Shown: positions 2,970-31,704, counted from the stretch's first letter. The stretch is DNA of 64,000 nt from Candidatus Omnitrophota bacterium (GCA_011620275.1 WOZK01000031.1:23479-87478), one strand, 5' to 3'. The notes: a model not told the origin generated them from the letters alone. Translations and numbers: made by a program.

Positions 2970-3830
2970 TTACCCCACTAATGCTCCCTGAGTTACGCCT
3001 TTGACTATGTATTTCTGCATAAGAATATAAACCAGTATTATAGGCAATGCGGTGATGGTTAACCCGGCCATGAGTAGCGGATAACGCGTAATGAATTCCC
3101 CCTGGAACGTCATTAACGCCACCTGCAGCGGCATCAAAGGTTTGGAATCGAATATGATCAGCGCCAGCACGTACTCATTCCAAACATTAAGCGCGTTCAA
3201 AACTACCACGACGGCCAGAACGGGCTTCGCCAGCGGCAGGGCGACGTGACGCCAGATGCCGAGTTTGGAGCAGCCGTCTATCCTTGCCGCGTCTTCGAGT
3301 TCCTTGGGCATCTTGTCGAAAAAAGTCTTCAGAAGAAAGATGCTGGTAGACAATCCCACGTTGATCATGCAAAGTATATAGCCTATGGCGGTATTTCGCA
3401 GATGCAACTTGTTCAACAGAACATAAAGCGGGACGAAACTGCCGGGAATGGGGATCATCATCGCCGCCATGAATATATAGAAAATAAGGTTTCTGCCCGG
3501 GAAGGTGAACCTGGAAAAGGCGTAAGCGGCCAGGGAGGAAACTATCACTATGCCGAGCACGACAACCGAGGTATAAACGATGCTGTTGAAAAAGTTCCGT
3601 CCGAACCCGCCCTGCTTCCAGGCCAGGACGTAATTCTCGAAATGGAACTCTCTGGGAATAAGCGACATGTCCCTAAAAATGGTCTCCTGCGTCTTCAGGC
3701 TGGAAGAGAACATCCAGAGCAGCGGAAAAATGCAGGTCAACGCCACCGCTATAAGAAAAGCATAGACTATCACATTCACTGCCACTTTCTTACCAAAGTA
3801 ATATTTATCGCTTTTCATATACGGCGGCAC
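2970..3830 (-). CDS. Carbohydrate ABC transporter permease (MalG-like, CUT1 family)
   Basis: It has multiple TM helices and the EAA-loop motif LEDAARIDGCSKLGIWRHVALPLAKP. It sits 3 bp from the flanking genes, consistent with an operon. Confidence 0.8.
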   Translation of the reverse strand: MPPYMKSDKYYFGKKVAVNVIVYAFLIAVALTCIFPLLWMFSSSLKTQETIFRDMSLIPREFHFENYVLAWKQGGFGRNFFNSIVYTSVVVLGIVIVSSLAAYAFSRFTFPGRNLIFYIFMAAMMIPIPGSFVPLYVLLNKLHLRNTAIGYILCMINVGLSTSIFLLKTFFDKMPKELEDAARIDGCSKLGIWRHVALPLAKPVLAVVVVLNALNVWNEYVLALIIFDSKPLMPLQVALMTFQGEFITRYPLLMAGLTITALPIILVYILMQKYIVKGVTQGALVG

Positions 3831-6236: not shown

Positions 6237-6581
6237 TCAATGCAGCCGCATGACCCTGGAAAACCTCATTAGTTCGGCATTCTCCAGACGGATACCCGTG
6301 CGATAGCTATTCACGCCTTCCGGCCTGCACCAAACTACCCTGCCCCTGGCGTAAAGCGGCTGACCCTGGTCGGGAACGTTCATCCATATTTCGAGATCCG
6401 CCGAAGACTGCAGCTCAGTTCCGGAGGTCATGCCGAGGCCGTAAGCGCTGATATCGCTTGAAACCGCTTCTCCGGAGATATGCGAATACAGGTCAGTGTA
6501 TTTTACGGGAAATTGAGCTTGAATACGCTCGAACAATCTCTGGTCTTCCGGACTCCCGTCTGGTTGTTCTATATATTCCAT
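6237..6581 (-). CDS. Single-domain PilZ (c-di-GMP binding) protein
   Basis: The RxxxR motif appears as QRLFER. The D-x-S-x-x-G motif appears as DISAYGLG. The C-terminal GRVVWCRPEGVNSYRTGIRLEN fits a PilZ beta-barrel. Confidence 0.6.
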   Translation of the reverse strand: MEYIEQPDGSPEDQRLFERIQAQFPVKYTDLYSHISGEAVSSDISAYGLGMTSGTELQSSADLEIWMNVPDQGQPLYARGRVVWCRPEGVNSYRTGIRLENAELMRFSRVMRLH

Positions 6582-6764
6582 CTATCCCGGATCTCCCCGC
6601 CGCAGATCCGCCTTTAATCAAACCGCAGACAATGTCCGGCAAGGCCCGAACTCCCCCATAGAATCGCGGCCTGAAATCTAAACTATTATACCGGGGCTTT
6701 ATTCCGGCCCGATAAATTATAGCTTATCGAAACGGGAACTGTCAACGTAAAACGGATTTATCAA

Positions 6765-6792
6765 ACCGCATTCATCCCCGGCTTGAACACAG
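6765..6792. repeat. Left terminal inverted repeat of the IS element (ACCGCATTCATCCCCGGCTTGAACACAG)
   Basis: Read directly from the sequence. The matching partner is the reverse complement of 7942-7969. Confidence 0.6.
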
Positions 6793-6897
6793 ATTGGATC
6801 AAATCAATCTGTTAAGGGATATCCGTTCTTTAAGAATATAGTATAAACAGCGGCGTCTATCCATGGTAAAGTATTTTTACAAAGGAGGGATCTTACC

Positions 6898-7860
6898 ATG
6901 TCATATATTAAAGGTAACCGTAATCAGATAATACTTTTACCGCAAGCCGTAGAAGACTACATCGCTAAGGACGATCCACTGCGCGCCTATGACGCCTTTG
7001 TTGAAGCCTTTGATTGTAATGTTTTAGGGCTGAAGATAGAGTAAAACCAGCCTGAGGTTAATACGTATTGACCCAAAGCGATGTTAAACCTTCTTATCTA
7101 CGTTTACGTCTACGGGATACGCAGTTCGCGTAAATTAAAAAGAGCGTGTTATCACAATCTATCGTTTATATGGCTGACGGAAGATATAAAACCTGATTAC
7201 CGGACTATCGCCAGATTCCGAATAGCCAATAAAGATATTATAAAGAACATATCAGGGCAATGCGCGCGCGCGTATGTGTTTAAAACTATGGTTGATAGAA
7301 GGTAACACCTTATTTATAGACGGCACTAAAATCAAAGCCAATGCTTCTTTAAAGAATACATGGTCAAAAGAACGGCTGCAAAAATCGGAGCAGCAATAGA
7401 AGATAATATAAAGCGCATCTTAACGGAATGCGAAACAACCGACGCCGCCGAGGCGAACACGGAATCTTTAATAAAATTCGAGAAAGAACTGGCTGATCAA
7501 AAAACCTGGAAAGCTGAAATGGCCGAAATTGCCAAAGAACTGAAAGAATCCGGTAAACAAAAGCTCAATACTTCAGTAAATGGCCGCAAAATCATACGTC
7601 AGAAGAATGAGACATTAATGCGGCGGCTCGATCAGCTATATGACAGCGATACCGGACAACAGATATACAAACTGCGAAAAGAAAAGATTGAGTTGCCGTT
7701 TGCCCATTTTAAGCACAATATGAACATACGCCAGTTGTTATTACGCGGGATAGATAAAGCGGGTATAGAGTTAAACTTGTGTACTATCAGGTATAACCTG
7801 GTTCGTATGATAACCTTATTGGGCGTGAGCGGATTTGAAGAAACGTTTCTTACCGTTTAA
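6898..7860 (+). pseudogene. IS1182-family transposase pseudogene, frameshifted with an internal deletion of the DDE core
   Basis: Piece 1 (6898-7043) begins MSYIKGNRNQIILLPQAVEDYIAKDDPLRAYDAFVEAFD, a typical IS1182 N-terminus, and is preceded by an AAGGAGGG SD sequence. Piece 2 (7081-7305) reads LLIYVYVYGIRSSRKLKRACYHNLSFIWL. A +3-frame stretch ending FIDGTKIKANAS carries the first catalytic Asp region. Piece 3 (7360-7860) jumps straight to the C-terminal LLRGIDKAGIELNLCTIRYNLVRM. Confidence 0.65.
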
Positions 7861-7941
7861 AACCCGGTATTTTACGTTTTAAAACAGCTTGTGATTTATG
7901 ACTATACTTTTTTCAAAGAGCAAATATTAATATAACCCGGC

Positions 7942-7969
7942 CTGTGTAAAACCCGGGGATGAATGCGGC
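7942..7969. repeat. Right terminal inverted repeat of the IS element (reverse complement GCCGCATTCATCCCCGGGTTTTACACAG)
   Basis: Read directly from the sequence. It pairs with 6765-6792. Confidence 0.6.
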
Positions 7970-7973
7970 TGGA

Positions 7974-8300
7974 TTAACTGTTTTGCCTAAGAACGTGCGC
8001 CACGCCTGTTGTGACCGAATTGGAAAGGCTGATACCGGCGCGAAGAGTTTTTCCCCCTTCCTGCATAGTCCAGATCACTTCGCCTTTCGTGTAGAACGGC
8101 CGGTTTTTGTCGGAAAGAAGAAGCCAGCAATCCAGAGAAGCGCCTCGCGACAACGAAACTTCTGTAAATATCCCCAGCCCGCGTATGCTTACGTCGCTGA
8201 CCGTTCCCATACACTGCAAGGAGGAACCGGTCAAAGAAAACTTTAATGGAAAGCTGACCGGAATCCTGACAAAAAATCTTCTCTCGTCTTGGTTTACCAT
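7974..8300 (-). CDS. Single-domain PilZ protein, paralog of the gene at 6237-6581
   Basis: The RxxxR motif appears as ERRFFVR and the DxSxxG motif as DVSIRGLG. The C-terminal GEVIWTMQEGGKTLRAGISLSN aligns with the other PilZ. Its stop codon directly abuts the right end of the IS element. Confidence 0.6.
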   Translation of the reverse strand: MVNQDERRFFVRIPVSFPLKFSLTGSSLQCMGTVSDVSIRGLGIFTEVSLSRGASLDCWLLLSDKNRPFYTKGEVIWTMQEGGKTLRAGISLSNSVTTGVAHVLRQNS

Positions 8301-8355
8301 ATATTCTGCGTGGAGAAATAGAACATGTTTCAGTCCCCCTGAGAAGGCCCCTTTC

Positions 8356-8391
8356 CCAAAATAAAAACCGGAAGAATCACTTTCCTTCCGG
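8356..8391 (-). terminator. Rho-independent terminator-like hairpin on the minus strand (CCGGAAG / CTTCCGG stem followed by a T-run)
   Basis: The reverse complement reads CCGGAAGGAAAGTGATTCTTCCGGTTTTTATTTTGGG. No annotated minus-strand gene lies upstream of it; see the corresponding finding. Confidence 0.35.
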
Positions 8392-8593
8392 CTTGAGTCC
8401 GTGGCTATCCCCGCTTTTTAAAGTCGGGATTAGCCGGCTTAGAAAAGAGTTTTATTATCTCTTTGTAAATATAGTATAACTCGTGAGGATTTTTTTGTCA
8501 AGCACAAATCTTAACTGAAATAGTTTGACTTTAGTATCTAAATATGTTATTTGTAAAGAGTATTTGTCCATAAAATAATTCTGGAGGATAACC

Positions 8594-15200: not shown

Positions 15201-16468
15201 CTGGCGGCCTCCGCTTTGGCTTTCTTTATATATTGTACCAGCCTGCGGTTCGCCGGACATACATATGCGCACGCCCCGCATTCCAAACAATCGGCCAACC
15301 CGTGCCGTTTAGCTTCTTCCAACATCCCTTTTTCGGCCGCCGCCCCCAGCATACAAGGAAGCAACCCGGTGGAACAGACGCGCACGCATCTGCCGCAGCG
15401 TATACAGGCGCTCTCTTCCAGGATACGGCCGCTTTTCTCCCCCAGCACCAACACCCCGCTGGTGGTTTTGATCACCGGGACATCGATCCCGGCCTGGGTT
15501 ATGCCCATCATCGGCCCACCTATGATTATCCTACGCGGTTCTTCTTTAAGCGGACCGCAGAAGGAAATCAGCGCGGATATCGGCGTGCCTGTCCGGACCA
15601 GTAAGTTTGCCGGATTCGACAGGCAATCCCCGGTGACGGTAACCACTCTTTCATAAAGCGGCTTACCGAGAAAAACCGCTTCATAAGCGGCGAACACTGT
15701 GGCCACGTTCTGCACGACGGCGCCGGCTTCAAACGGCAGTTTGCCGCGCGGAACCTCTCTGCCCAGCACGCTTTTAATCAACTGTTTTTCCCCACCCTGG
15801 GGATAAAAAGACCTTAATTTCTTAACCCTCAGCGGACCGGAGGCTTTGGCCAGTAAAAGTTCAACCGCCCTGGGCTTATTGTCCTCAACGGCTATGCATA
15901 TATCCTCGGCCCCCAGTATGCGACCCAACAGCAACGCCCCTTTAATGATCTCGTCGCTTTTCTCCAGCATCAAGCGGTAATCGGAAGTCAGATACGGTTC
16001 GCACTCGGCGCCGTTAACGATCAAAGTCCTCACACGGACCGGAGGTTTAAGCTTGAGGAAAGAAGGAAAACCCGCGCCTCCCATACCTACCAGGCCGGCG
16101 TCGCGTATTATATCGAGAAGTTCCTCCGGTTGCAAAGAGTCCACGTCACGCGCTTCGCGCGCCCGGAAAGCGTAAGAATCAGGCAGCCGCGTCTCTATTA
16201 CCGCCGCGCTGCACCTGCCGAGCACGGGGTGCGCGCAGGTTTCGATTGAAGAAACCGTGCCGGTCACGGAAGAATGAACTGCCGCCGACGGCATGGCCCC
16301 GGCGGAGGCTATCCGCTGTCCGGTAATGACTTTATCGCCCGGCTTAACCTCAAGCAGGCCAAGCTTGCCTAAATGCTGGCAGAACGGGATGAACATCTTT
16401 TCCGGCGGGGGCAGGACCGTTATTTTCTTATCTTCGGTGGCTTCTTTGCGATGCTCTAATTTAACCAT
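15197..16468 (-). CDS. rnfC: Rnf complex subunit C (NADH-binding, two [4Fe-4S] clusters)
   Basis: The motif GMGGAGFPSFLK is present. Two ferredoxin motifs are present: CIRCGRCVRVCSTGLLP and CLECGACAYVCPANRRL. Confidence 0.85.
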   Translation of the reverse strand: MVKLEHRKEATEDKKITVLPPPEKMFIPFCQHLGKLGLLEVKPGDKVITGQRIASAGAMPSAAVHSSVTGTVSSIETCAHPVLGRCSAAVIETRLPDSYAFRAREARDVDSLQPEELLDIIRDAGLVGMGGAGFPSFLKLKPPVRVRTLIVNGAECEPYLTSDYRLMLEKSDEIIKGALLLGRILGAEDICIAVEDNKPRAVELLLAKASGPLRVKKLRSFYPQGGEKQLIKSVLGREVPRGKLPFEAGAVVQNVATVFAAYEAVFLGKPLYERVVTVTGDCLSNPANLLVRTGTPISALISFCGPLKEEPRRIIIGGPMMGITQAGIDVPVIKTTSGVLVLGEKSGRILEESACIRCGRCVRVCSTGLLPCMLGAAAEKGMLEEAKRHGLADCLECGACAYVCPANRRLVQYIKKAKAEAAR

Positions 16469-17718: not shown

Positions 17719-17811
17719 ATCCCGCTGTATAATATTATATATCCCCGGCGGCACCTCGGGTAAAGCCGGGAATCCTATTTGGGCTTTAACTTCCGCTTTC
17801 AGGGTTAAATA

Positions 17812-17887
17812 TGGAGCCGATGAGTGGATTTGAACCACCGGCCCGCGCTTTACGAAAGCGCTGCTCTACCAACTGAGCTACATCGGC
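17812..17887 (-). tRNA. tRNA-Thr (anticodon CGU) with encoded CCA
   Basis: The reverse complement is GCCGATGTAGCTCAGTTGGTAGAGCAGCGCTTTCGTAAAGCGCGGGCCGGTGGTTCAAATCCACTCATCGGCTCCA. The cloverleaf is recognisable: a 7-bp acceptor stem, a GCTC/GAGC D-stem, an anticodon loop TTCGTAA, and a GGTTCAAATCC T-loop. Confidence 0.8.
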
Positions 17888-21803: not shown

Positions 21804-22823
21804 TCAATCCAATACCTTTCTTATTATGCCTCCCCCGACAACTACATCTCCTCTGTAAATCACCGCCGATTGTCCTGGAGTAACCGCGAATTGGGGGAGA
21901 CGGAAAACAATTTTTAGCGTGTTGCCGGATGGCGTTATTTCGGCTGGCTGTTCCGTATGATTATACCGTATCTTCACGTTAAGGACAACCTTCTTTTTCA
22001 ACGGCTCGCGTGGAAAGCTCAGGTTGTTTACGATGAAAGCCGACGCCGAAACCTCCTGCCTCCCGCCCAGCACCACCCTGTTGCGCCGCGCGTCCACCTC
22101 TTTAACGTATAAAGGACGGCCGGAAGAAATACCCAGGCCCTGCCTTTGCCCGACGGTATAAAACGGCACTCCTTTATGACGCCCGAGAACTTTTCCCCCC
22201 GTATCGACGAATTCTCCGGGCAGGCAACCGAATCCCGGAACGGAGGCGAGGAAAGAACGGTAATCGCCGCCCGGGACAAAACATACGTCCTGGCTCTCCT
22301 TGCCGGAAGAAACGCTCAACCCCGCGGAGGAGACAAGCCGGCGCACTCCCTCCTTGGTATAACCGCCGAGCGGGAAAAGCGTGTTCTTGAGCGAATCCGG
22401 AGCAAGACTGTAGAGAAAATAACTCTGGTCTTTTTCTGAGTCGGCCGCTTTTTTTAGGCGGCCGTTTTCTATTTTCGCGTAATGCCCGGTGACGAAATAA
22501 TCCGGCCCAAGGGAAAGGGCCTTGACGCGCAGCAGTCCGAATTTGATGTAGCGGTTGCATCGCACGCAGGGATTGGGGGTCCGGCCCCTGGCGTATTCCG
22601 CGCAGAAGTTATCGATAACCTTGCGCTCGAACTCTTTTCCCAGACGGAATATCCGATGCTCTATGCCGATCTCTTCCGCCGCGCGCCTCGCCGCGCAGAT
22701 ATCCTCGTTCCCCGACAAAAGAGCGGTAATCCCAATTACCCGGAAACCGCGCGATTTAAGTAATAAAGCCGCTGCCGCGGAATCCACTCCCCCGCTTAAA
22801 GCGACCGCAGCCGTTTTTGACAT
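21804..22823 (-). CDS. mnmA: tRNA-specific 2-thiouridylase
   Basis: The PP-loop is ALSGGVDSAAAA. The catalytic Cys motif NPCVRCNRYIKFG is present. It is 339 aa. Confidence 0.85.
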   Translation of the reverse strand: MSKTAAVALSGGVDSAAAALLLKSRGFRVIGITALLSGNEDICAARRAAEEIGIEHRIFRLGKEFERKVIDNFCAEYARGRTPNPCVRCNRYIKFGLLRVKALSLGPDYFVTGHYAKIENGRLKKAADSEKDQSYFLYSLAPDSLKNTLFPLGGYTKEGVRRLVSSAGLSVSSGKESQDVCFVPGGDYRSFLASVPGFGCLPGEFVDTGGKVLGRHKGVPFYTVGQRQGLGISSGRPLYVKEVDARRNRVVLGGRQEVSASAFIVNNLSFPREPLKKKVVLNVKIRYNHTEQPAEITPSGNTLKIVFRLPQFAVTPGQSAVIYRGDVVVGGGIIRKVLD

Positions 22824-22837
22824 ATCGATAATAATGA

Positions 22838-22942
22838 AATCCCCCGGGCTTAAAACCCGTGGTAACCCTTAGATAAACCCGGGGCAAGCCCGCTCCGCAG
22901 CTATCCTCGGATTGAACAACCGGGGATTTCTACGGTTTAAGT
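22838..22942. repeat. Intergenic repeat family, copy A (CCCGGG-core motifs upstream of mnmA)
   Basis: The proximal part reads AAACCCGTGGTAACCCTTAGATAAACCCGGGG. The distal part reads AACAACCGGGGATTTCTACGGTTTAAG. See the findings. Confidence 0.5.
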
Positions 22943-22960
22943 AAACAGCGCGTTTGCCCA

Positions 22961-23722
22961 TTATATGCTGTAGCCGGTAAGTAAAAGGGTGTACCCGGCA
23001 GAAGACGTCCCTTTCAACTTTAAAGGTATCCTTTTTTCGTCCGCGGAGATCCATATCTCGAATTTCCGCGGTTCGCTCGTAAAATGGTAAGCCTTGAAAG
23101 TGCCGGCCGGGACCTTTACTTCTTCTATGGAATCCAGAGAAACGATGAAACTCTGCGTCGGGAGCTGAACGCGCATCCTCCATCCTTCTTTAAGACCGGG
23201 GATTGTCCTGACATAATAAGGCAGCAATACGGCGTTATGTATAGCCCTATCTTTCTTGATGACCTGTACGCTTCTGCTTTTCCCCTCTTCCCTTGTTATC
23301 TTAATAGAAAAGGCCGTCTGGTCATACTCTTCGGTTATCCTCTCTTTCTTCGGCCAGAAATCTATTATCCTTTCCACGCGCACCGGCAACAGGCTGCCGG
23401 GGAGACAATAAATAAGCTCATTATCCCTGAAACGGGCCAGTACAGTGCGGAAATTCACGACATGAACGGCGGTGCCGTTCAGTTCGGTAATATCCCTGTG
23501 CTCAAATTCAGCAGTCCCCACCGATAGTATGCCGAGTTTTACCTGATACAGGACCTTCTCCCCCACGTATTTTTTTATCGGGTCTTCCTGCGCAGGAGAA
23601 AATGCGGCGGTCTTTCCACCGCGGCCCGAGGGCCGGAAAACAACGGTTTTAAAAAACCAGCCCGCCGCCGCGGCGGCGAGAATTAAGCATAATATAATCC
23701 TGTATCGTGGCACCCGTATCAT
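22961..23722 (-). CDS. Hypothetical membrane-anchored or secreted protein (DUF3108-like)
   Basis: It has an N-terminal signal/anchor, IILCLILAAAAAGWFF. It is beta-rich and has no catalytic motifs. Confidence 0.4.
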   Translation of the reverse strand: MIRVPRYRIILCLILAAAAAGWFFKTVVFRPSGRGGKTAAFSPAQEDPIKKYVGEKVLYQVKLGILSVGTAEFEHRDITELNGTAVHVVNFRTVLARFRDNELIYCLPGSLLPVRVERIIDFWPKKERITEEYDQTAFSIKITREEGKSRSVQVIKKDRAIHNAVLLPYYVRTIPGLKEGWRMRVQLPTQSFIVSLDSIEEVKVPAGTFKAYHFTSEPRKFEIWISADEKRIPLKLKGTSSAGYTLLLTGYSI

Positions 23723-23768
23723 TTATCGTCTCGTTATCCCGGGAGGCCGAATAGGGCCCACCCAAGCT

Positions 23769-23866
23769 TTAAACCCGGGGTAATCCTTAGATAAAATAAG
23801 GACAAAACCACTCCGCGTATCCAAGGTTAATCCGGATTGAAAACCGGGGATTCCTGCGGTTTGATT
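23769..23866. repeat. Intergenic repeat family, copy B
   Basis: The proximal part reads TTTAAACCCGGGGTAATCCTTAGATAAAA. The distal part, GAAAACCGGGGATTCCTGCGGTTTGATT, is identical to copy D. Confidence 0.5.
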
Positions 23867-24839
23867 AACCGCGCTGCGGGAGTCCGCAATGTATCACATC
23901 CCCTGCCATTACTTTTTCCGTCAAGCCGGAATCATTCCTGACCAGCAGACCGCCGTCATCTTCTATATCTACCGCCTCGCCCTCGATACCCCCCCTGGGC
24001 AGGATTACTTTGACTCTTTTTCCCAGTGTGGAATTAAGCCCGCGCCATTTACCGATTATCAAAGCGTACTCACCGCGGCAGAATTCTTTATAATAGTTTT
24101 CCAGCCTGAAAAAGATCTCCTGAAGCAGGGCAACGCGGTCCACCTTCATCCTCGCCGCTTCAGCTATCGAGGCCGTGCCCGGAAGTAACTCGGCAGTTTC
24201 GTTGTTCACGTTCAAACCCACGCCGACCACCACGTAAGGCGCGCCGCCGGCACCGCTGCCGGCCTCGGTAAGAATACCCCCCGCCTTCCGGGCGTCCAGC
24301 AGGATATCGTTGGGCCATTTTATCCCGGTAACGACACCGGAAATGCTATGCACGGCTTCCGCAACGGCTACCGCCGCCAGCAAAGTAAGAAGGGAAAAAC
24401 GCCCCGTTGAAGAGGGGGGACGAAGCAGCAGGGAAAAATATATACCTTTCCCTGCAGGAGAGAACCAGTTCCTGCCGGCCCTGCCGCGGCCTGCGGACTG
24501 ACTCTCGGCGACGACCGCCGTCCCTTCCTGCGCGCCTTCGGCAGCCAGGCGTGCCGCGTCGTCCATGGTCGAAACGGTCTTGTCTAAATAAACTATGCGC
24601 CTGCCGATCTTGACCGTCGCGAGGTTCTTCTCTATCTCAGCCGGCATCAGACAATCCGGAATAAAAGTCATCTTATAGCCCAGATGCGGCACGGTTTCTA
24701 TCACGTAACCGTTGTCGCGCAGTCTACGCATCTCTTCCCACAACTTCTCCGCGCTGATTCCGAGCGCGAAGGTTAACTCCTCCTCCTGCATGAATCGCTC
24801 GCTCTCTTTAAGCAATGTGATTATCTTATCTCGGGGCAT
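23865..24839 (-). CDS. birA: Bifunctional biotin-protein ligase and biotin operon repressor (class II BirA)
   Basis: The start was moved to the internal ATG at 24839, giving the N-terminal wHTH MPRDKIITLLKESERFMQEEELTFALGIS. The ligase signature GRGRAGRNWFSP is present. The ORF-track extension begins with TTG. Confidence 0.75.
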   Translation of the reverse strand: MPRDKIITLLKESERFMQEEELTFALGISAEKLWEEMRRLRDNGYVIETVPHLGYKMTFIPDCLMPAEIEKNLATVKIGRRIVYLDKTVSTMDDAARLAAEGAQEGTAVVAESQSAGRGRAGRNWFSPAGKGIYFSLLLRPPSSTGRFSLLTLLAAVAVAEAVHSISGVVTGIKWPNDILLDARKAGGILTEAGSGAGGAPYVVVGVGLNVNNETAELLPGTASIAEAARMKVDRVALLQEIFFRLENYYKEFCRGEYALIIGKWRGLNSTLGKRVKVILPRGGIEGEAVDIEDDGGLLVRNDSGLTEKVMAGDVIHCGLPQRG

Positions 24840-24865
24840 TGTTTTGTTTCCGCAGGTTATAAAAC

Positions 24866-24952
24866 TCCCCGGGCAATCCTGAGATAAACCCTGGTAGTGA
24901 GCTGTCCAACTACTCAAAACAGGCGGCCCGGGGTAATCCTTGGCTATTCGGC
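24866..24952. repeat. Intergenic repeat family, copy C (two proximal-type units)
   Basis: It contains two proximal-type units: AATCCTGAGATAAACCCTGG and GGCCCGGGGTAATCCTTGG. Confidence 0.45.
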
Positions 24953-25046
24953 TGTCCGATCCTGTTGAAGGGACATTCAGTAATGCAAATCAGAGTCTGA
25001 AACCGGTCAATAATATCCGCCCGGCATTCAGGATCATGCGCCGCCG

Positions 25047-25454
25047 TTAAAAACGCACTTCCATCGCCTTGAACGGACAAATGCGCACACAGACCCCGCA
25101 GGCGATACATTTATCTTCGGAGAAAACGATCTCCCTGCTCTCCTTGTCCGGCAGTAAAGCCCCCGCCGGACAAAGAGGCACGCAGACACCGCAATCGGTG
25201 CATTTTTTCTCGTTTCTTACCACGTCCTGGCTCAAAGGCTGTATCTTCACCCCGCAGGACTTCAGATAATGCAACCCCTTCTCGAAAGCCGGCTCTTCAC
25301 CGCTCAACTCCAGCACCATCAGCCCTTCCTCATCCGGGGTCACGTAAGCCTTCAAGATGTTGAAATTAAGTTCGTAATCCTTGACCAGCTTGAAAACTAT
25401 CGGCTGTTCGACCAGTTTACGGGGGAAATGTAAAACCACTTTTCTGGAGATCAT
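25047..25454 (-). CDS. NIL-domain ferredoxin with 2x[4Fe-4S] (MA1822-type)
   Basis: The N-terminal NIL domain is LVKDYELNFNILKAYVTPDEEGLMVLEL. Two ferredoxin motifs follow: CTDCGVCVPLCP and CIACGVCVRICP. Confidence 0.75.
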   Translation of the reverse strand: MISRKVVLHFPRKLVEQPIVFKLVKDYELNFNILKAYVTPDEEGLMVLELSGEEPAFEKGLHYLKSCGVKIQPLSQDVVRNEKKCTDCGVCVPLCPAGALLPDKESREIVFSEDKCIACGVCVRICPFKAMEVRF

Positions 25455-25470
25455 CTTTCCGCTCCTTGCC

Positions 25471-26679
25471 TTACTCCTTTTTGTAAAGCCTCTCGTTGAG
25501 AGGTTTCACCTTGTAGCCGCTCTCGGCCCCCGGCAGCGCCGCAGAAGGCTCGGTGAGAAAGAATTCTCCTTCCTCGATCCTGGTCTTCAACAGCACGGCT
25601 ATCTTGCGCGCGCGCGCATAGCTGGAAAGGCTGCCTGTGGGAACGGTCTTACCGCGTAGTTTGATGTTCCCGGAACGCAACTCCGCGTAACTTACTTCAG
25701 CGATGATGCGGGATGACCTTTGCGGATAATCGCGGCCGTAATCTACCACCGGAGCGTATATCTCGGCATCGGTAACCGCCGCCCGCCTAACCACTTCCTC
25801 ATCAAAAACGGGGATGGGCACGCCGATGCCTATGGAAAGCGTCACCCCGTAACCCGCCATACTCGTGCCGACCAGCCATTCCGGGCTCATCTGTTTCAGG
25901 TCGCCGATAACCGCAAGCGTACCCGCGCCTCCCAGAGGGATCCCGTTCCTGCCGCGTTCGACGCAGGGGTTGTGCTGCGTCCCGTGCCAGGCTATGTAAC
26001 CGATCCCGCCTCCGAGAAAAATACGGGTGCCTATGCCTATGGTTCGGTAATAGGGGTCTTTCAGCAGAGGCGAAAGCTGCCCGGCGGAAGAATAATTGGC
26101 GTTGCCGAGCCGCGGTTTAAGCATCCCCATATAGGTAAAAACGGTCTTGCCGGAGAGGTTGACTGCAACATTATAATTCTGATAACAATTGCGCATATTG
26201 AAGAGAACCGCCTCGTTTAAATCCCTGATGTTAAGCAGTGTCTCCAATTTTCTCCGGGGATAGCAGTCGGTACCGTAAGCGCTGCATTCCAGACGGACGT
26301 CTTTGCCCGCTGCCAATTCCTGTATCACGTGCCCGCCGCCGTATTTGAATTCCCCGGGAAAAATCTTATTGCGGGGATCATCGTCCGGCACGGCGGTAGC
26401 CCCGAGGAAAACGTCCACGGCGCCAAAAGCGGCATAAACCGGCACGTCATTGACCGTGCAGCTGCCGCCCCCCAGCTTGATCCTCGGCTTGGAGTGACCG
26501 ATATTGAAATAAACCCCGCTGGAACACATGGGTCCGAAAGTGGCGGTGGTGACCACGTCCACCTCCCTGGCGACCTTCCTGACGCCTTTCTTAGCCACCA
26601 GGTCTATTATCTCCTCGGCAGTGACCACCACGGCGTCTCCCCTGCCGATCTTAGCGTTGATCTCTTTGATAGTCTTCAT
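25471..26679 (-). CDS. COG1900/DUF39 sulfur-incorporating homocysteine biosynthesis protein (MA1821-type)
   Basis: It is 402 aa and begins MKTIKEINAKIGRGDAVVVTAEEI, as in archaeal COG1900 proteins. It is followed 16 bp later by the NIL-ferredoxin, a known gene pairing. Confidence 0.65.
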   Translation of the reverse strand: MKTIKEINAKIGRGDAVVVTAEEIIDLVAKKGVRKVAREVDVVTTATFGPMCSSGVYFNIGHSKPRIKLGGGSCTVNDVPVYAAFGAVDVFLGATAVPDDDPRNKIFPGEFKYGGGHVIQELAAGKDVRLECSAYGTDCYPRRKLETLLNIRDLNEAVLFNMRNCYQNYNVAVNLSGKTVFTYMGMLKPRLGNANYSSAGQLSPLLKDPYYRTIGIGTRIFLGGGIGYIAWHGTQHNPCVERGRNGIPLGGAGTLAVIGDLKQMSPEWLVGTSMAGYGVTLSIGIGVPIPVFDEEVVRRAAVTDAEIYAPVVDYGRDYPQRSSRIIAEVSYAELRSGNIKLRGKTVPTGSLSSYARARKIAVLLKTRIEEGEFFLTEPSAALPGAESGYKVKPLNERLYKKE

Positions 26680-26699
26680 TTCCCCTCACTTTGGCCCGT

Positions 26700-26921
26700 T
26701 CAAACCGAGACCACCTCTTTTACTTCCGGTACTTCCTTTTTCAGGATGCGCTCTATGCCCATTTTAAGTGTAAACTGGCTCATAGCGCAGCATCCGCAGC
26801 TGCCGGTGAGTTTCACTTTCACCACTCCGTCTTCTCCGACATCCACCAGATCCACGCTCCCGCCGTCTGCCGCCAGCATCGGCCTGATCTTTTCCAGCAC
26901 TGCCTCAACCTTTTCTCTCAT
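26700..26921 (-). CDS. NifU-like (Nfu C-terminal domain) Fe-S cluster carrier
   Basis: It is 73 aa. The motif LTGSCGCCAMSQFTL matches the Nfu CxxC scaffold motif. Confidence 0.7.
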   Translation of the reverse strand: MREKVEAVLEKIRPMLAADGGSVDLVDVGEDGVVKVKLTGSCGCCAMSQFTLKMGIERILKKEVPEVKEVVSV

Positions 26922-26997
26922 CTAATCCTCCCGTCTGCCGTACTCCATTGACGTGCGATCTTGTTTTGAACGGCCTTGCCCGGTCCGCGAAGATGCG

Positions 26998-27897
26998 TCA
27001 GGACAAATATCTCTCCCCCGTATCCGGAAGGACCGTAACTACCGTCTTTCCCCTGCCGAGCTTCTCAGCCGCCCTCAACGCGGCCCATACCGCGGCCCCC
27101 GCGGAAATCCCGGCAAAGATGCCTTCGCGCGCAGACAATTCAAGACGGCAGGACAAAGCGGCCTCGTCGGTAACCGTAATTACTTCGTCTATCAAAGAGA
27201 CATCCAGCACAGGAGGAATAAACCCCGCTCCTATACCCTGTATCTTATGCGCCCCGGCTTTACCTCCGGAAAGAACCGGGCTGGCCGCGGGTTCGACCGC
27301 GATAACCTTCACGCGGGGGTTCTTCGCCTTCAACGCCGCGCCGACGCCTGTCAACGTCCCGCCTGTGCCGACCCCGCAGACAAAGGCGTCGATCCTTCCT
27401 GGGGTATCGCGCAATATCTCCACCGCCGTTGTCCTGCGGTGGGCTTCGGGATTGGCCGGGTTGCTGAACTGCCTGATGGAATAACCTTTCTTGACGGAAC
27501 GGCCTATTTCCCCGGCTTTATCGATCGCGGCGCGCATGCCGCCGGCGACGGGCGTGAGCACGACTTCCGCCCCGTAACTGCCCAGTATTTCGCAACGCTG
27601 ACGGCTCATATTTTCCGGCATGACTATAATACATTTGTAGCCGCGCAAGGCGGAAAGCATAGCGAGACCTATCCCGGTATTGCCGCTGGTAGGCTCGATT
27701 ATGGTATAGCCCGGTTTCAGCTGCCCGCTGCGCTCCGCTTCATTGACAATATTGAGGCAAATGCGGTCTTTTATACTGCCTCCGGGGTTTCCCCCTTCTA
27801 TCTTTACGAAGACGTTCGCGCCGCGCCGCTCGGGTAGCGAATTCAATTTTACCAGGGGAGTATTCCCAATCAGGGCAGAAACATCTTTAGTGAACAT
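26998..27897 (-). CDS. cysK: Cysteine synthase (O-acetylserine sulfhydrylase), PLP-dependent
   Basis: The motifs GNTPLVKLN, the PLP-Lys region, IEPTSGNTGIGLAM and GVGTGGTLTG are present. It is 299 aa. Confidence 0.8.
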   Translation of the reverse strand: MFTKDVSALIGNTPLVKLNSLPERRGANVFVKIEGGNPGGSIKDRICLNIVNEAERSGQLKPGYTIIEPTSGNTGIGLAMLSALRGYKCIIVMPENMSRQRCEILGSYGAEVVLTPVAGGMRAAIDKAGEIGRSVKKGYSIRQFSNPANPEAHRRTTAVEILRDTPGRIDAFVCGVGTGGTLTGVGAALKAKNPRVKVIAVEPAASPVLSGGKAGAHKIQGIGAGFIPPVLDVSLIDEVITVTDEAALSCRLELSAREGIFAGISAGAAVWAALRAAEKLGRGKTVVTVLPDTGERYLS

Positions 27898-27906
27898 CGG
27901 CGTATT

Positions 27907-28356
27907 TTATATCTGATAGACCATCTGTTCTTTATCTTTACGGTTGAGACTCTCCAGCAGGTCGGAAAAGGTGACGCCGTCGATTATGCGCATAGTGGCG
28001 GCGGAGACCCTCTGCCAGACGTCCCGGAAAACGCACTTATATATATCCCGGCACCCTTTATATCCGTCCTCAACGCAGGCGATCGGCTCAACCGGAGAAG
28101 CGATGAAACGCACAACCTGCCCCAGGGATATCTTCGACGGCGGCCTTGCGAGGAGATAACCTCCTACTTTGCCCCGGCGGCTCTCGACAAAACCGCCTTT
28201 TTTCAATTCCAGCAGCACTTGCTCAAGAAACTTGATGGGAATATCCAGCCGGCCGGCCATGTGCTGGATCCTCACCGGAACCGGCTTGTCATAATAGTGG
28301 ATCGCCAGATCAAGTATGGCTTTAAGCGCGTAATCGCCTTTATATGTTATTCTCAT
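27907..28356 (-). CDS. Rrf2-family transcriptional regulator (IscR/CymR-like, three Cys)
   Basis: The start was moved to the ATG at 28356. The N-terminal HTH begins MRITYKGDYALKAILDLA. The conserved motifs GYLLARPP and CxxxxxC...C (CVEDGYKGC...C) are present. Confidence 0.75.
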   Translation of the reverse strand: MRITYKGDYALKAILDLAIHYYDKPVPVRIQHMAGRLDIPIKFLEQVLLELKKGGFVESRRGKVGGYLLARPPSKISLGQVVRFIASPVEPIACVEDGYKGCRDIYKCVFRDVWQRVSAATMRIIDGVTFSDLLESLNRKDKEQMVYQI

Positions 28357-28359
28357 GGC

Positions 28360-28376
28360 TATAATCCTGATTATAA
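28360..28376. promoter_or_regulatory. AT-rich palindrome TATAATCCTGATTATA between the -10 element and the Rrf2 start codon (candidate Rrf2 operator)
   Basis: It has 6-bp inverted arms. Its position over the transcription start and RBS region is typical of autoregulatory Rrf2 sites. Confidence 0.35.
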
Positions 28377-28382
28377 TAGTAG

Positions 28383-28411
28383 AGTATACCAAAATAATGC
28401 CTTTTTGTCAA
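28383..28411 (-). promoter_or_regulatory. Sigma70-type promoter of the Rrf2-sulfur operon (TTGACA, 17-nt spacer, TATACT)
   Basis: The minus-strand sense reads TTGACAaaaaggcattattttggTATACT. The -35 element lies inside an 8-bp inverted repeat, AATGCCTT / AAGGCATT (28395-28426). Confidence 0.45.
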
Positions 28412-28441
28412 CCTTATTAAGGCATTAGCCTGAAACGAAAC

Positions 28442-29347
28442 TTACAAAGAAAGCAGATATCTGGCGGCGGAAAGCGCGGCTTTTGCCCCGTCTCCGGCGG
28501 CAATAATGATTTGTTTTTCCGGGACATCGGTAACGTCGCCGGCGGCGAACAGTCCTGGGACGTCGGTTCCGTTGGAACAATCGACCTTAATCTCCCCTTT
28601 TCCGTTCCTGGAGGCGATGGCGGCGAATTCGGAATTAGGGACAAGCCCTATCTCCACGAAAACCCCGCTGACCGGCAGTATCGATTCTTTACCCTGCGCC
28701 GAGAACCGTATATCTTCCACGAAACGGCCGCCTCTAACCTCTATTACCGAGGCATTCTTATAAACCTCCACATTGCCGGCGGCCGAAAGCCTGTCTATCA
28801 GGATCGTGTCGGCCGTGAAGCTCCCGGAAGATTCCAGCACATATACCCTGGAGGCTATGCGCGACATCTGTAGAGCCGCGTCCAGCGCCGAGTTGCCGCC
28901 GCCGATGACCGCGACGTTCCGGCCGGCGAACAAAGGCCCGTCGCAGACCGCGCAATAGGTAAGCCCCCTGCCGAGAAATTCCTTTTCCCCCTTAACTCCC
29001 AGCAGGCGCGAACGTTTCCCCGTCGCAACGATCACCGCCGAGGCGCTATATGTATCTCTTTCTCCGGAGACCCTGAACCGCCTGCCGTCCCGCGTAAGGG
29101 ATAAAGCGGTCTCGGGCTGCACCAGTTTGATACTGAATATCTTCAGATGCTCTTCGAATCTTGCGGTCAACTCCGGCCCGCTAACCACCTGACATCCGGT
29201 GTAATTCTCGATGCGTCCGCTCCAAGCCGCCTGTCCGCCGATGTCGCGGCTGATCATCATGAAATCCAGTCCCTTCCTAGCGGCATAGATGGCGGCCGTA
29301 ACTCCCGCCGGCCCTCCTCCTATTATCAAAAGATCCGCCTGTTGCAT
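28442..29347 (-). CDS. trxB: Thioredoxin-disulfide reductase
   Basis: The FAD motif is LLIIGGGPAGVTAAIYAARKG. The redox-active centre is CAVCDG. The NADPH motif is GGGNSALDAAL. It is 301 aa. Confidence 0.75.
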   Translation of the reverse strand: MQQADLLIIGGGPAGVTAAIYAARKGLDFMMISRDIGGQAAWSGRIENYTGCQVVSGPELTARFEEHLKIFSIKLVQPETALSLTRDGRRFRVSGERDTYSASAVIVATGKRSRLLGVKGEKEFLGRGLTYCAVCDGPLFAGRNVAVIGGGNSALDAALQMSRIASRVYVLESSGSFTADTILIDRLSAAGNVEVYKNASVIEVRGGRFVEDIRFSAQGKESILPVSGVFVEIGLVPNSEFAAIASRNGKGEIKVDCSNGTDVPGLFAAGDVTDVPEKQIIIAAGDGAKAALSAARYLLSL

Positions 29348-29367
29348 CTCGCTTCCCCCGCGTCCTT

Positions 29368-29604
29368 TTAAACCAGCCCCAGCGCCTGTTTTACGCGTTC
29401 GCGGTCGAATCCTACAATAAGCTCTCCTTCGATGTCGACGACCGGCACGCCCATCTGGCCGGTCCTGTCGACGATTTCATCCGCCGCAGCGCGGTCAACG
29501 GAAACGTCGATATCCTCGAAGACAACGTTGCTTTCCTTAAGGAACTGTTTCAGGCGGATACAGTAAGGACATGTGGGAGTGCTGTAAACCTTTACATTCT
29601 TCAT
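29368..29604 (-). CDS. Glutaredoxin-like protein (CPYC)
   Basis: It is 78 aa. The motif YSTPTCPYCIRLKQFL is present on a thioredoxin fold. Confidence 0.65.
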   Translation of the reverse strand: MKNVKVYSTPTCPYCIRLKQFLKESNVVFEDIDVSVDRAAADEIVDRTGQMGVPVVDIEGELIVGFDRERVKQALGLV

Positions 29605-29641
29605 ATACGCCTCCTTTACCGGGACCGGGCGGCCTCGCCTG

Positions 29642-30106
29642 TCAAGTCTTAAGAACGTCCGGTGTCAAATCCATAATACTTGCAACGTTCAGCTTAATCA
29701 TATATTCGGGTTCCGGGAGCAGGGCTTCGGGATGAAAAGGATGCCCTTTGCGGCCGCCGAGGTTGGTTATCAATCTTTGCGCCAGCCTGGCGGTTATTCT
29801 GTTCTCCCATAATCTCAAGACCTCTGCCGGCAGCCGTTCTTTCAGAATTATCTCCGCCTCCCCTTTTAGGCAATACCCCTTGAATCCGTGTTCTTCGACG
29901 GCAGTTACGCTGAACCTGCCACTGCGCAGTATATTGCCGTAAGTGCGTTTCTTATAAAGATCCAGCAGGTATATCTCCCCCGCGGGAGCGACTATATCCA
30001 CCACGCCTTTACAAGAGGAATGCGGATAACCGTCCGCGTCTATGGAACAGGCTACGACAAAACTCTGCGCGAGCAAAAAAGAAGAAACTTTTTCCGGGAT
30101 AATCAT
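29642..30106 (-). CDS. PNPOx-like FMN-binding split-barrel protein
   Basis: The start was set to the ATG at 30106 (MIIPEKVSSFLLAQSFVVACSIDADGYPHSS). The upstream part of the ORF-track frame overlaps the rubredoxin gene and is regarded as non-coding. Confidence 0.5.
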   Translation of the reverse strand: MIIPEKVSSFLLAQSFVVACSIDADGYPHSSCKGVVDIVAPAGEIYLLDLYKKRTYGNILRSGRFSVTAVEEHGFKGYCLKGEAEIILKERLPAEVLRLWENRITARLAQRLITNLGGRKGHPFHPEALLPEPEYMIKLNVASIMDLTPDVLKT

Positions 30107-30113
30107 AAGCGGG

Positions 30114-30272
30114 CTAAATTTTCTCGAACATATCTTTCCCGACACCGCATTCTGGGCAAACCCAGGCATCCGACAAAGCCTCAAACGCCGTCCCCGGAGC
30201 GATCCCGGCTGAAGGATCCCCCTGCTGAGGATCATATATATATCCGCAAACTGTACAACGGTATTTCTGCAT
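30114..30272 (-). CDS. rub: Rubredoxin (52 aa), absent from the ORF track
   Basis: Hand translation of the minus strand gives [52 protein letters not shown]. Both CxxCG knuckles are present, along with the conserved YIYDP and DxWxCPxCG segments. It lies directly upstream of the PNPOx-like gene and downstream of the flavodiiron protein gene. Confidence 0.8.
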
Positions 30273-30414
30273 AATAACCTCCTTTGCGCCGCAAATAATT
30301 CGGCGTTCCGCGGTCTGCTCATGATTTCAAAACTGAGCGGTATTTGTATTATCCGCGCGCCAAGGGCGGCGGTCCAGTTTCGGCTCGTGATTTTACCTTA
30401 GCCTAAAGGAGAGG

Positions 30415-30446
30415 CGTGTGTTCACCTGTGTGAAAGTATTCACTAC
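30415..30446. promoter_or_regulatory. Composite palindromic operator candidate (TTCAC-N4-GTGAA-N4-TTCAC; includes TGTGA-N6-TCAC)
   Basis: The sequence is gtgTGTTCACctgTGTGAAagtaTTCACtac. It lies between the flavodiiron protein stop and the rubredoxin start. It resembles Crp/Fnr (HcpR) or Rex half-site architecture. Confidence 0.3.
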
Positions 30447-31643
30447 TCACTTGTGCGCTTCGATAAGTCTGCGCCCGAAATCACGGCCGAATTCGCGGCA
30501 GGCCTCTAAATCAACCGGAGAAGGGCAATATTGAACGGAGATTCCGCGGCAAACCGGAGGTATACCGGCTCCGGACAACACCGCTTCCATCTCATTCACC
30601 GCCCCGCCAGCCCAGCCGAAAGAGCCGAAAACCGCACTAAGACGGTTCCGCGGTTTTAATCCTTTGAGCAAATGAAGGAATCCGGCGAGATCCGGCAGCA
30701 TGCCGTTGTCATGGGTGGATGAACCAAAAAGATATCCTCCGGCCTCAAGCATCCTGCCTATTATTTCCGTGCGGTCGGCCCGGTTTATGTCGAACACCTC
30801 GGCCTCTACCCCCGCCTCCAACAACCCGGAGTAAATCGCGCCCGCCATCTTTTCAGTGCCTCCCCACATGCTTTCATAGACGATCACGGCCCTGGGGACT
30901 GAAGAATTCAGCGCCCAACGGGAGTAGCTCTCGATTATCGCGCCGGGATCGTTACGCCATATCATACCGTGGCTGGGAGCGATCATGGAGACCGACAGGC
31001 CGCTTTCCCGCAGTTCCGCGATCTTTCCGGATACAAGCCGGCTCAAAGGCCAGAGGATATTGGCGTAGTATTTGGCCGCCTCTCGCATAAGCGTCCCCTG
31101 CTCGGCCTCGTCGGCGAACCTTCTGCAGTGGGCGAGGTGCTGCCCGAAAGCGTCGTTGGAAAATAGTATTTCCTTCCCTTCCAGATAAGTGAACATACTG
31201 TCCGGCCAATGCAGCATGGGGGCTTCAATAAAAACGAGCGATCTCTTCCCCAGGGCAAGTCTGTCGCCGGTCTTTACGGTCTGAAAAGGCCAATCCGCGT
31301 AATAATGCCTCGATAGACCCTCGCGGCATTTTGCCGTCCCTAACAGCTTTGCCCGTGGGGCCGCGCGCATCACTTCCGGCAAGGCTCCCGAATGGTCTGT
31401 TTCCACGTGGTTCGCCACGACATAATCTATCTTCTCCGGTGGTACGATCGCGGAGATATTCTCCAGCAAATCCCGTGAAAAAGGTCCGAATACGGTATCT
31501 ATAAGAGTGATCTTGTCATCTATTATAAGGTAGGCATTATACGTAGTTCCCGAGGAAGTATTGAAAGTGTGACCGTGAAAATTCCTGATGTTCCAGTCCA
31601 CGGCACCGACCCAGAATATATCTTTGCTTATTTCACAAAACAC
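30447..31643 (-). CDS. fprA: Flavodiiron protein (rubredoxin:oxygen/NO oxidoreductase; metallo-beta-lactamase plus flavodoxin domains)
   Basis: It has a GTG start preceded by an AGGAGGAG SD sequence. The di-iron ligand motif reads ANHVETDHSGALP (HxExDH). The C-terminal flavodoxin-like domain includes AVIVYESMWGGTEKMA. Confidence 0.8.
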   Translation of the reverse strand: MFCEISKDIFWVGAVDWNIRNFHGHTFNTSSGTTYNAYLIIDDKITLIDTVFGPFSRDLLENISAIVPPEKIDYVVANHVETDHSGALPEVMRAAPRAKLLGTAKCREGLSRHYYADWPFQTVKTGDRLALGKRSLVFIEAPMLHWPDSMFTYLEGKEILFSNDAFGQHLAHCRRFADEAEQGTLMREAAKYYANILWPLSRLVSGKIAELRESGLSVSMIAPSHGMIWRNDPGAIIESYSRWALNSSVPRAVIVYESMWGGTEKMAGAIYSGLLEAGVEAEVFDINRADRTEIIGRMLEAGGYLFGSSTHDNGMLPDLAGFLHLLKGLKPRNRLSAVFGSFGWAGGAVNEMEAVLSGAGIPPVCRGISVQYCPSPVDLEACREFGRDFGRRLIEAHK

Positions 31644-31660
31644 CGGCTCCTCCTTTAGGC

Positions 31661-31688
31661 TTGAAAACCGGGGATTCCTGCGGTTTGA
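31661..31688. repeat. Intergenic repeat family, copy D (distal-type unit immediately upstream of the fprA RBS)
   Basis: GAAAACCGGGGATTCCTGCGGTTTGATT is identical to the 28 nt at 23838-23866. Confidence 0.5.
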
Positions 31689-31704
31689 TTGAAGCTCCCC
31701 GCCA

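Follow-up and report, generated by a model that had tools for sequence, protein, structure and literature searches.

A 64,000-nt stretch of DNA from a Candidatus Omnitrophota bacterium (GCA_011620275.1 WOZK01000031.1:23479-87478), referred to as a whole as the window, carries short, related motifs with a G+C-rich core at four intergenic sites. These motifs are very probably the opposite ends of a single small mosaic repeat, which has been inserted between genes in Omnitrophota, mostly right behind a stop codon, and is mobile at present or was so until recently. The family is selfish-DNA-like rather than a shared regulatory site. Its members are non-coding, oriented elements of about 45 to over 350 nt with a distinct 5' end (the head) and 3' end (the tail). 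The members found at the four sites, designated A to D, and their parts are as follows.

22833-22940, minus strand: element A, full copy of 108 nt, between the DUF3108 gene and mnmA
22920-22940, minus strand: head of element A, TTAAACCGTAGAAATCCCCGG
22833-22870, minus strand: tail of element A, AAGGGTTACCACGGGTTTTAAGCCCGGGGGATTTCATT
23750-23864, minus strand: element B, full copy of 115 nt, between birA and the DUF3108 gene
23844-23864, minus strand: head of element B
23750-23788, minus strand: degenerate tail of element B
23865-23868, minus strand: TTAA directly 5' of element B, holding the birA stop codon TAA; probable insertion target
24859-25046, minus strand: element C, older diverged copy, between the NIL/4Fe-4S gene and birA
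31658-31703, minus strand: element D, between the TPR gene and the flavodiiron gene

The decayed head of element C lies just past a stop codon, and the arms of its tail stem were located at 24925-24941 and 24859-24881. Element D consists of an old tail remnant (31690-31703, GGCGGGGAGCTTCA) fused directly to a 32-nt head-only fragment (31658-31689). A preliminary description of the window had already listed the four sites, but it made copy C too small, gave D as 31661-31688 and missed three more head-like copies (6614-6639 and 6761-6787 on the plus strand, and 7947-7973), which were recovered by repeat finding and with a model of the head.

Motif sites and their position relative to genes

The motifs were searched as a distal 26-mer and a proximal 20-mer, with 100 dinucleotide-preserving shuffles, each searched for both, as chance control. 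On the minus strand, exact matches to the distal 26-mer were obtained at 23837-23862 and 31661-31686, and the proximal 20-mer, with up to three mismatches allowed, matched at 22856-22875, 23774-23793, 24867-24886 and 24927-24946. No match to either motif was obtained in the shuffles (0 for the 26-mer, 0 for the 20-mer; chance expectation zero), and the related motifs do lie at the four intergenic sites where they had been placed. Sites B and D are indeed identical, over 30 nt (AATCAAACCGCAGGAATCCCCGGTTTTCAA) instead of the 28 nt first reported.

Based on maps of open reading frames (ORFs), Pfam matches and public gene calls, all motif copies are situated between ORFs. The true start of mnmA, with its PP-loop included, is at 22823 and that of birA, with its helix-turn-helix (HTH) domain included, at 24839, and the intergenic assignments therefore hold. 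Family-wide, 37 of 48 heads lay outside the ORFs predicted by a crude longest-ORF caller, although 88% of the sequence was called coding. The public gene calls begin both genes too late (window 22719-22823 and 24792-24839; locus L001 11005 and 8932), so that MnmA loses its SGGVDS PP-loop and BirA its HTH domain. Read in their longer form, the mnmA and birA ORFs begin right beside elements A and C.

The motifs had been divided into a proximal and a distal sub-type. Both types are real, but they represent the 3' end (proximal) and the 5' end (distal) of one oriented element. Likewise, the copies had been described as lying upstream of four transcription units and are better read as elements that each occupy a short spacer between co-directional genes and start at or near the stop codon of the upstream gene.

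Copies in other genomes and anatomy of the element

A metagenome scan with the pattern TCAAACCGCANNNATCCCCGG returned 45 loci, about 10 of which were chance matches in high-G+C coding DNA; about 35 further copies have the extended head, the modules and the tail in common. The hits came from metagenome-assembled genomes (MAGs) of Omnitrophota, the named relatives and homologues were all Omnitrophota, and the further copies lay in contigs of 39-54% G+C; the window itself matched a contig of a Logan assembly. A head-only sequence model gave 60 matches in 415 kb (window and loci), with about 10 representing extra, diverged copies not used to fetch the loci. Tail-like sequences added 39 distinct matches, of which a few are probably chance and several lie away from any canonical head. 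The sampled density was roughly one copy per 10-35 kb (about 6 head-like copies in the 64 kb of the window, about 10 extra ones in approximately 350 kb of loci). The first scan of a genome collection, performed with ...CCCCGGTT (family consensus CCCCGGCTT), yielded 3 true matches and wrongly suggested a very low copy number. The single match in viral contigs fell within coding sequence and was discarded as chance.

The left boundary of the element reads (T)TTAA/TCAAACCGCAGAAATCCCCGGCTTTCAAGCCGGATTTA (slashes mark junctions), and the head is composed of TCAAACCGCAGAAAT and a CCCCGG hairpin. Directly after the host TTAA, the element starts with a nearly invariant stretch, TCAAACCGCAG, read as single-stranded, which is followed by the first hairpin, (G)AAATCC(CC)GGCTT-TCA-AAGCCGGATTT. 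Next comes the interior, in which hairpin modules are combined in a variable mosaic; some of them, units of 40 and 85 nt, are repeated in tandem two to three times. The element continues with ...TGCGG-AGTAGATTA, a second G+C-rich hairpin, CCCCGGGCTTCAGCCCGGGG, and the terminal AGCTTCATT, the tail being GATTA-CCCCGGGCTTCAGCCCGGGG-AGCTTCATT and the right end ...(A/G)GATTACCCCGGGCTTCAGCCCGGGGAGCTTCATT/. In short forms (L009, L014a, L020), the left arm of the head hairpin is joined to the right arm of the tail hairpin. Modules seen in A, B and C of the window are met again in contigs unrelated to it, for example GCGGAG..., TTGTCCTTA..TTTATCTAAGGrTTACCCC and GGACAGCTCACTAC. Tandem copies are arranged head-to-tail, with tail-to-head joints of the form GAGCTTCA/ATCAAACCGCAG in element D and in L035, and similar joints in L021 and L014a.

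Presence and absence at orthologous sites

Syntenic loci were collected via homologues of the DUF3108 protein, with protein identities of 81% (L054), 73% (L055), 67% (L056) and 64% (L057). The spacers at the four sites compare as follows.

Site A, DUF3108 gene to next gene: window 137 nt, element; L054 50 nt, no element; L055 no recognisable element; L056 260 nt and L057 268 nt, mnmA absent in both
Site B, birA to DUF3108 gene: window 142 nt, element; empty in L054 (25 nt), L055 (31 nt), L056 (48 nt) and L057 (70 nt)
Site C, NIL/4Fe-4S gene to birA: window 207 nt, decayed element; L054 16 nt; decayed elements in L055 (104 nt), L056 (231 nt) and L057 (308 nt)
Site D, TPR gene to flavodiiron gene: window 61 nt, remnant; empty in L056 (11 nt) and L057 (42 nt); L055 not covered; L054 239 nt, a different family member with a clear tail

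In L054, positions 15900-16160 contain a further member, about 270 nt long and with its head degenerate, just 3' of the orthologue of the tRNA gene at 17815-17887 of the window, and no family member is found at that position in the window (17800-17815) or in L056. Presence and absence in collinear operons argue for insertion and loss of a mobile element, not for a conserved regulatory site. Together with the many copies in unrelated gene contexts, they also bear out two earlier proposals, namely that no single regulon is involved and that the motifs form a repeat family similar to repetitive extragenic palindromes (REPs) or to the miniature transposable elements with inverted repeats known as MITEs.

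Filled and empty junctions could be compared at site B. The empty site of L054 reads gcgcggTTAA/ACGGCTGCGG...atg, and that of the window gcgcggTTAA/TCAAACC...GGGCCCTAT/TCGGCCTCCCGGG...atg. Since the empty site also has the TTAA, which includes the stop codon of birA, these four bases are host sequence, and the element starts at TCAAACC. No target duplication was detected at site B in this comparison with L054. Among 48 copies, the four bases preceding the head (-4 to -1) were T in 46, T in 43, A in 45 and A in 40 cases, respectively, and the bases following ...TTCATT were variable.

The syntenic loci showed two other differences in gene content. An IS110-family transposase gene takes the place of the PALP (cysteine synthase-like) gene in L056 (5602-6531), and in L056 and L057 (10765-11034) no mnmA lies between the DUF3108 gene and nadA, with a 260-270 nt spacer containing a promoter-like TTGTCC...TATAAT.

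Orientation, genomic context and folding

Both neighbouring genes are co-oriented with the element at 26 sites, 3 of which are orthologues of window copies, and oppositely oriented at 2. The copies reversed relative to their neighbours are L027b and the window element at 6761-7973 described below. The upstream ORF ends exactly on the TAA of the TTAA in 11 copies and within 30 nt of it in 7 more. The plus strand has a negative GC skew across the window (1-64000; -0.05 to -0.12), the minus strand carries most of the genes, and the whole stretch is probably part of a single replichore in which the minus strand is the leading one. Since elements A-D are on the G-rich strand, the orientation bias could go with replication as well as with transcription. 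The genes beside copies elsewhere are unrelated, among them tRNA, ammonium transporter, purine and ligase genes. In L009 and L050 (~3000-3160, minus strand), a long-arm tRNA gene, by eye of the Ser/Leu type, has a short-form element about 10 nt upstream, and the repeats are therefore not limited to the spacers of protein-coding genes.

In the minimum-free-energy fold of copy A, GAAAUCCCCGG of the head pairs with CCGGGGGAUUUC of the tail and thereby closes the element (-45.4 kcal/mol, z-score -2.6). The z-scores were -1.5 for B, -2.1 for C and -2.1 to -5.4 for the short forms, and the tail hairpins had energies of -8 to -21 kcal/mol; these folds speak for the hairpins of head and tail. For copy A, the sense fold was more stable than the antisense fold (-45.4 versus -38.6 kcal/mol), as it was for copy C (-36.7 versus -33.3 kcal/mol). 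Judging from the base sequence, the CCGCA of the head would be able to pair with the TGCGG upstream of AGTAGATTA, CCGCA being a part that the search pattern held fixed. One compensated stem pair, CCGCGGG/CCCGCGG versus CCCCGGG/CCCGGGG, was observed in L054 and L009 and provides limited evidence for the stem.

These features raise the question of whether the element is primarily a functional RNA module of operons, whose hairpins set mRNA 3' ends, shield upstream cistrons from exonucleases or serve processing. Selection would then keep its spread and orientation, as with some REP, bacterial interspersed mosaic element (BIME), enterobacterial repetitive intergenic consensus (ERIC) and Correia copies, and such a role is compatible with a mobile origin. 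It is favoured by the strong co-orientation with flanking genes, the slightly better sense folds of A and C, and the very good conservation of the single-stranded ends across hosts of differing G+C content. Moreover, the copies follow a stop codon and precede the next ribosome-binding site, and neither a promoter nor a terminator pattern intervenes, which makes read-through transcription likely. However, in close relatives the orthologous operons lack the element at sites A, B and D, the neighbouring genes have no common function, the interior is highly variable, copies decay or collapse (C, D and the tail of B), the fold z-scores are modest, and copy B folds no better in sense than in antisense. 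On balance, we consider it unlikely that the element is primarily an RNA module. A transcribed structured RNA, one of the preliminary proposals, or a co-opted part in stability or processing is conceivable, as the elements are probably co-transcribed.

Promoter, terminator and operator readings

When the window was compared with Rfam at the gathering threshold, only a tRNA passed, and no match to the elements, whether of the window or of five loci, appeared when E values of up to 1-5 were admitted, so that the Rfam search proposed in the preliminary description matched no family to the elements. A scan of the gene strand for sigma-70 -35/-10 pairs (16-18 nt spacing) or a G+C-rich hairpin with a T run returned nothing inside A-D. 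The head hairpin was accordingly rejected as a terminator, as no T run follows it.

The motifs had also been proposed to be a very general promoter-associated site. In its explicit form, they would constitute the promoter of a general or alternative sigma factor ahead of many transcription units, and the position of copies upstream of start codons in gene orientation, as well as the T/A-rich stretches after the CCCCGG core, could be taken to agree with this. It is not supported by the scan: the canonical promoters of the organism (TTGACA-N17-TATAAT) lie elsewhere in the window and no such pattern occurs in the elements. In addition, some tails stop about 5 nt short of the Shine-Dalgarno sequence, relatives lack the element at the same genes, and there are copies in reverse orientation or on the 3' side of a tRNA gene. 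We therefore abandoned the proposal, and a promoter function for the motifs is highly improbable. A promoter drawn by hand alignment (weak TTTATC-N17-TTTAAG hexamers) was dismissed on the same grounds. The best promoter-like site of its 10-kb region (28383-28411, minus strand; TTGACA-17-TATACT with a TG-extended -10) is found directly upstream of an Rrf2-family regulator gene.

Operators of a transcription factor, for example BirA or the Rrf2-family regulator of the same cluster, would make the sites a local regulon. The head contains a partial dyad, TnAAAnC...GGA-A-TCC...GnTTTnA, whose AAACC...GGTTT half-sites are by eye reminiscent of BirA operators, and birA, with its HTH domain, and the Rrf2 gene are both nearby. 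Yet the sites are absent from the same spacers of syntenic relatives that keep the genes and both regulators, on which ground BirA and Rrf2 operators were rejected. Copies elsewhere flank unrelated genes, the element starts at the upstream stop codon and runs for 100-350 nt with variable modules, and there are no biotin genes downstream. A local regulon of this kind is scarcely credible.

An insertion sequence in the hairpin loop of an element

The additional head-like copies of the window surround a decayed insertion sequence (IS) and comprise the following features.

6614-6639, plus strand: partial head copy, TTAATCAAACCGCAGACAATGTCCGG (head model 19.4 bits, E 4e-4)
6761-6787, plus strand: 5' arm of a long-hairpin head variant, TCAAACCGCATTCATCCCCGGCTTGAA
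6788-7946, plus strand: decayed IS1182/IS5-like IS in the hairpin loop (Pfam DUF772, DDE_Tnp_1_6)
6899-7045, plus strand: ORF fragment of the IS
7081-7305, plus strand: ORF fragment of the IS, DUF772
7360-7860, plus strand: ORF fragment of the IS, DDE_Tnp_1_6
7947-7973, plus strand: 3' arm of the long hairpin, TAAAACCCGGGGATGAATGCGGCTGGA on the plus strand

The arm at 7947-7973 is perfectly complementary to the arm at 6761-6787 over 16 nt and adjoins the stop codon of a PilZ gene at 7974-8300. The IS has its own ends, CACAGATTGG... and ...CCGGCCTGTG. Their motif, CACAG(A/G)(T/C)(T/C)GG, is kept in an independent copy (L007), which also abuts a similar arm.

Such an arrangement invites the reading that the heads are terminal inverted repeats of an IS1182-like IS, and A-D its MITE or solo-end derivatives, moved by the DDE transposase. 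In its favour, the IS fragments of the window sit between two perfectly complementary head-like arms, the second copy abuts such an arm as well, and a third locus (L027b) has kept 25 nt of the left IS end in the loop, between head and tail. However, two relatives with the same flanks (L047, L039) have the two arms adjacent to each other as a single hairpin, without the IS, and in L035 the same long-hairpin variant occurs within an ordinary head-to-tail element. What looked like an inverted head, the second arm, is therefore the 3' half of the head's own hairpin, and the assignment of the heads as terminal repeats of the IS was dropped after these loci had shown a single hairpin. It is further at odds with the conserved ends of the IS itself, with the make-up of typical elements (a head and a different tail, no long terminal inverted repeat, no target duplication) and with the finding of only 3 homologues of the IS transposase in the protein collection, compared to dozens of elements. 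An origin of the family from this IS is very unlikely, and we conclude that the IS1182-like IS targets the hairpin loop of the element and does not supply its ends.

The two PilZ-domain genes in this region (6237-6581 and 7974-8300, minus strand) each have a 130-170 nt leader (6582-6740 and 8301-8500) and canonical sigma-70 promoters (TTGACA-N17-TATAAT and TTGACA-N17-TATACT). The leaders had no Rfam match at the gathering threshold and could be a candidate for an unrecognised cis-regulatory RNA.

Proposed mode of mobilisation

New copies of the repeat land directly 3' of TTAA in the short spacers of a compact genome, often where a TAA stop codon is preceded by T. A hairpin-recognising single-strand DNA enzyme of the HUH/Y1 type, acting in trans, might mobilise the element, as for IS200/IS605 derivatives and REPs; by this analogy, HUH-type hairpin-dependent mobilisation is put forward tentatively, as a possibility somewhat short of even. 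The orientation bias could arise from strand-specific insertion or from selection against the reverse orientation. Once resident, the element would most likely be co-transcribed with its neighbours and then decay or collapse by deletion, and its hairpin loop is where the IS1182-like IS lands.

Candidates for autonomous copies were rejected, since the ORFs that separate heads from distant tails are housekeeping-like, as judged from N-terminal sequence only, and none is transposase-like. Searches with IS200, IS608 and REP-associated tyrosine transposase (RAYT) proteins by tblastn detected a single Y1_Tnp gene, as a weak match in L022 that was confirmed by Pfam. This lead was given up because the gene, judged by its homologues, is conserved, single-copy and part of a secretin/TPR/giant-protein cluster, with no linkage to the repeat. 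The Omnitrophota Y1_Tnp protein of about 320 aa (L022 8884-9840, L058 911-1864, L059 10001-10981, L060 7518-8486) is annotated as RayT by the Joint Genome Institute and has a C-terminal transmembrane/coiled-coil tail. Its gene always follows a MerR-AAA-T2SSC-secretin-TPR-TPR block and precedes the gene for a DUF2341/LamG protein of about 5000 aa, and the protein looks domesticated rather than mobile.

Several points weigh against a recently mobile repeat or narrow its basis. The copies were found with an exact 18-base pattern, so that the conservation of the head is partly built in, and the sample consists of contigs and loci. The TTAA junction without duplication comes from one clean filled/empty pair at 81% protein identity, the other sites being too diverged. 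A MAG that is about 93-95% identical in DNA keeps A, B, C and D at orthologous places; this retention neither supports nor excludes a function, because so close a relative says nothing on constraint. Covariation support for the hairpins is thin, and RNAalifold on a MAFFT alignment of the tails was uninformative because MAFFT had placed the arms out of register. Finally, none of the sampled copies (555 kb of loci) yielded a transposase between its head and its tail, and the only Y1/HUH gene detected, with the window genome searched within its 64 kb, is the conserved member of the secretin cluster, which is not flanked by the repeat.

Two more far-reaching forms of the proposal may be considered, to which, taken together, we give a small chance. 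The repeat may be an unrecognised hairpin-guided single-strand mobile element that homes to TTAA at stop codons in one orientation, with its ends read by a putative Omnitrophota enzyme, or else a co-opted, phylum-wide intercistronic RNA module. The latter would explain why the single-stranded ends are nearly invariant across hosts of 39-57% G+C.

Significance

Omnitrophota are an uncultured phylum, and a defined repeat with clear ends aids the annotation of its MAGs, as illustrated by the mis-starts of mnmA and birA. The family also flags likely assembly break points and its insertion polymorphism can provide markers at strain level. From the stop-codon/TTAA junction, the absence of duplication and the almost absolute orientation follows the testable prediction of a hairpin-dependent mobilising enzyme, and the IS1182-like insertions in the hairpin loop add one more case of insertion sequences that target repeat hairpins. 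No new regulon or new class of regulator is revealed.

Comparison with known systems

Full-text searches of the literature found no described interspersed repeats of REP or MITE type in Omnitrophota. In comparison with classical MITEs, the ends of the element share at most AAT(C/G)AA(A/G)C and site B shows no duplication. No parent IS with the same ends was found, the sole associated IS (6788-7946) having different ends and interrupting an element that is intact in relatives.

REPs and their composite forms (BIMEs and REPINs, mobilised by RAYTs) are similar in being extragenic, G+C-rich, mosaic and located just 3' of genes inside operons, in having neither terminal inverted repeats nor target duplications, and in offering hairpin loops as landing sites for insertion sequences. 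IS1397 and ISKpn1 land in the hairpin loops of BIMEs. REPs further consist of an imperfect palindrome after G(T/C)AG, and here CCGCAG (CCGTAG in copy A) precedes AAATCC(CC)GGCTT..AAGCCGGATTT; G(C/T)AG sits directly before the bulged palindrome of the head, although the conserved stretch (TCAAACCGCAG) is longer than the tetranucleotide. In contrast to REPs, to which they have no sequence similarity, the Omnitrophota elements are longer, have distinct 5' and 3' ends, occur as direct instead of alternating units, and are almost always co-oriented with genes. They were sampled at about 1 per 10-35 kb, by loci and not in complete genomes, as opposed to hundreds of REPs per genome, and a RAYT gene flanked by inverted repeats was not found in the 64-kb window and the sampled loci.

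The ends of IS200/IS605 elements and their palindrome-associated transposable element (PATE)-type derivatives resemble the family in their different left and right ends with subterminal hairpins, the lack of inverted repeats and duplications, a possibly strand-specific orientation, and insertion 3' of a tetranucleotide, TTAA here. In IS608, this tetranucleotide is reportedly TTAC, and the linkers between hairpin and tip are said to measure 19 nt (left) and 10 nt (right), as against 15 and 9 nt in the present family. The differences are a mosaic interior with tandem modules and the lack of a tnpA/tnpB partner with these ends among the sequences searched. Judged by structure and junction, the family qualifies as IS200/IS605-type, without a known partner.

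The Correia elements of Neisseria (NEMIS) and the ERIC/IRU sequences share a length of about 100-150 nt, co-transcription with neighbouring genes, which is probable in the present family, long hairpins able to affect mRNA processing, and insertion polymorphism between strains. However, the Correia type carries terminal inverted repeats of 26 bp and a duplicated TA, and ERIC is an imperfect palindrome found in both orientations, none of which applies to the Omnitrophota family. The pneumococcal BOX elements (boxA-boxBn-boxC) are likewise modular, intergenic, hairpin-rich and non-coding, with fixed end modules, variable internal tandem modules and no known mobilising enzyme. They differ in being of unrelated sequence and from another phylum, and are not known to have a TTAA/stop-codon junction or a strict orientation. 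The Omnitrophota elements are a newly described family of REP/BIME/BOX/PATE-like repeats.

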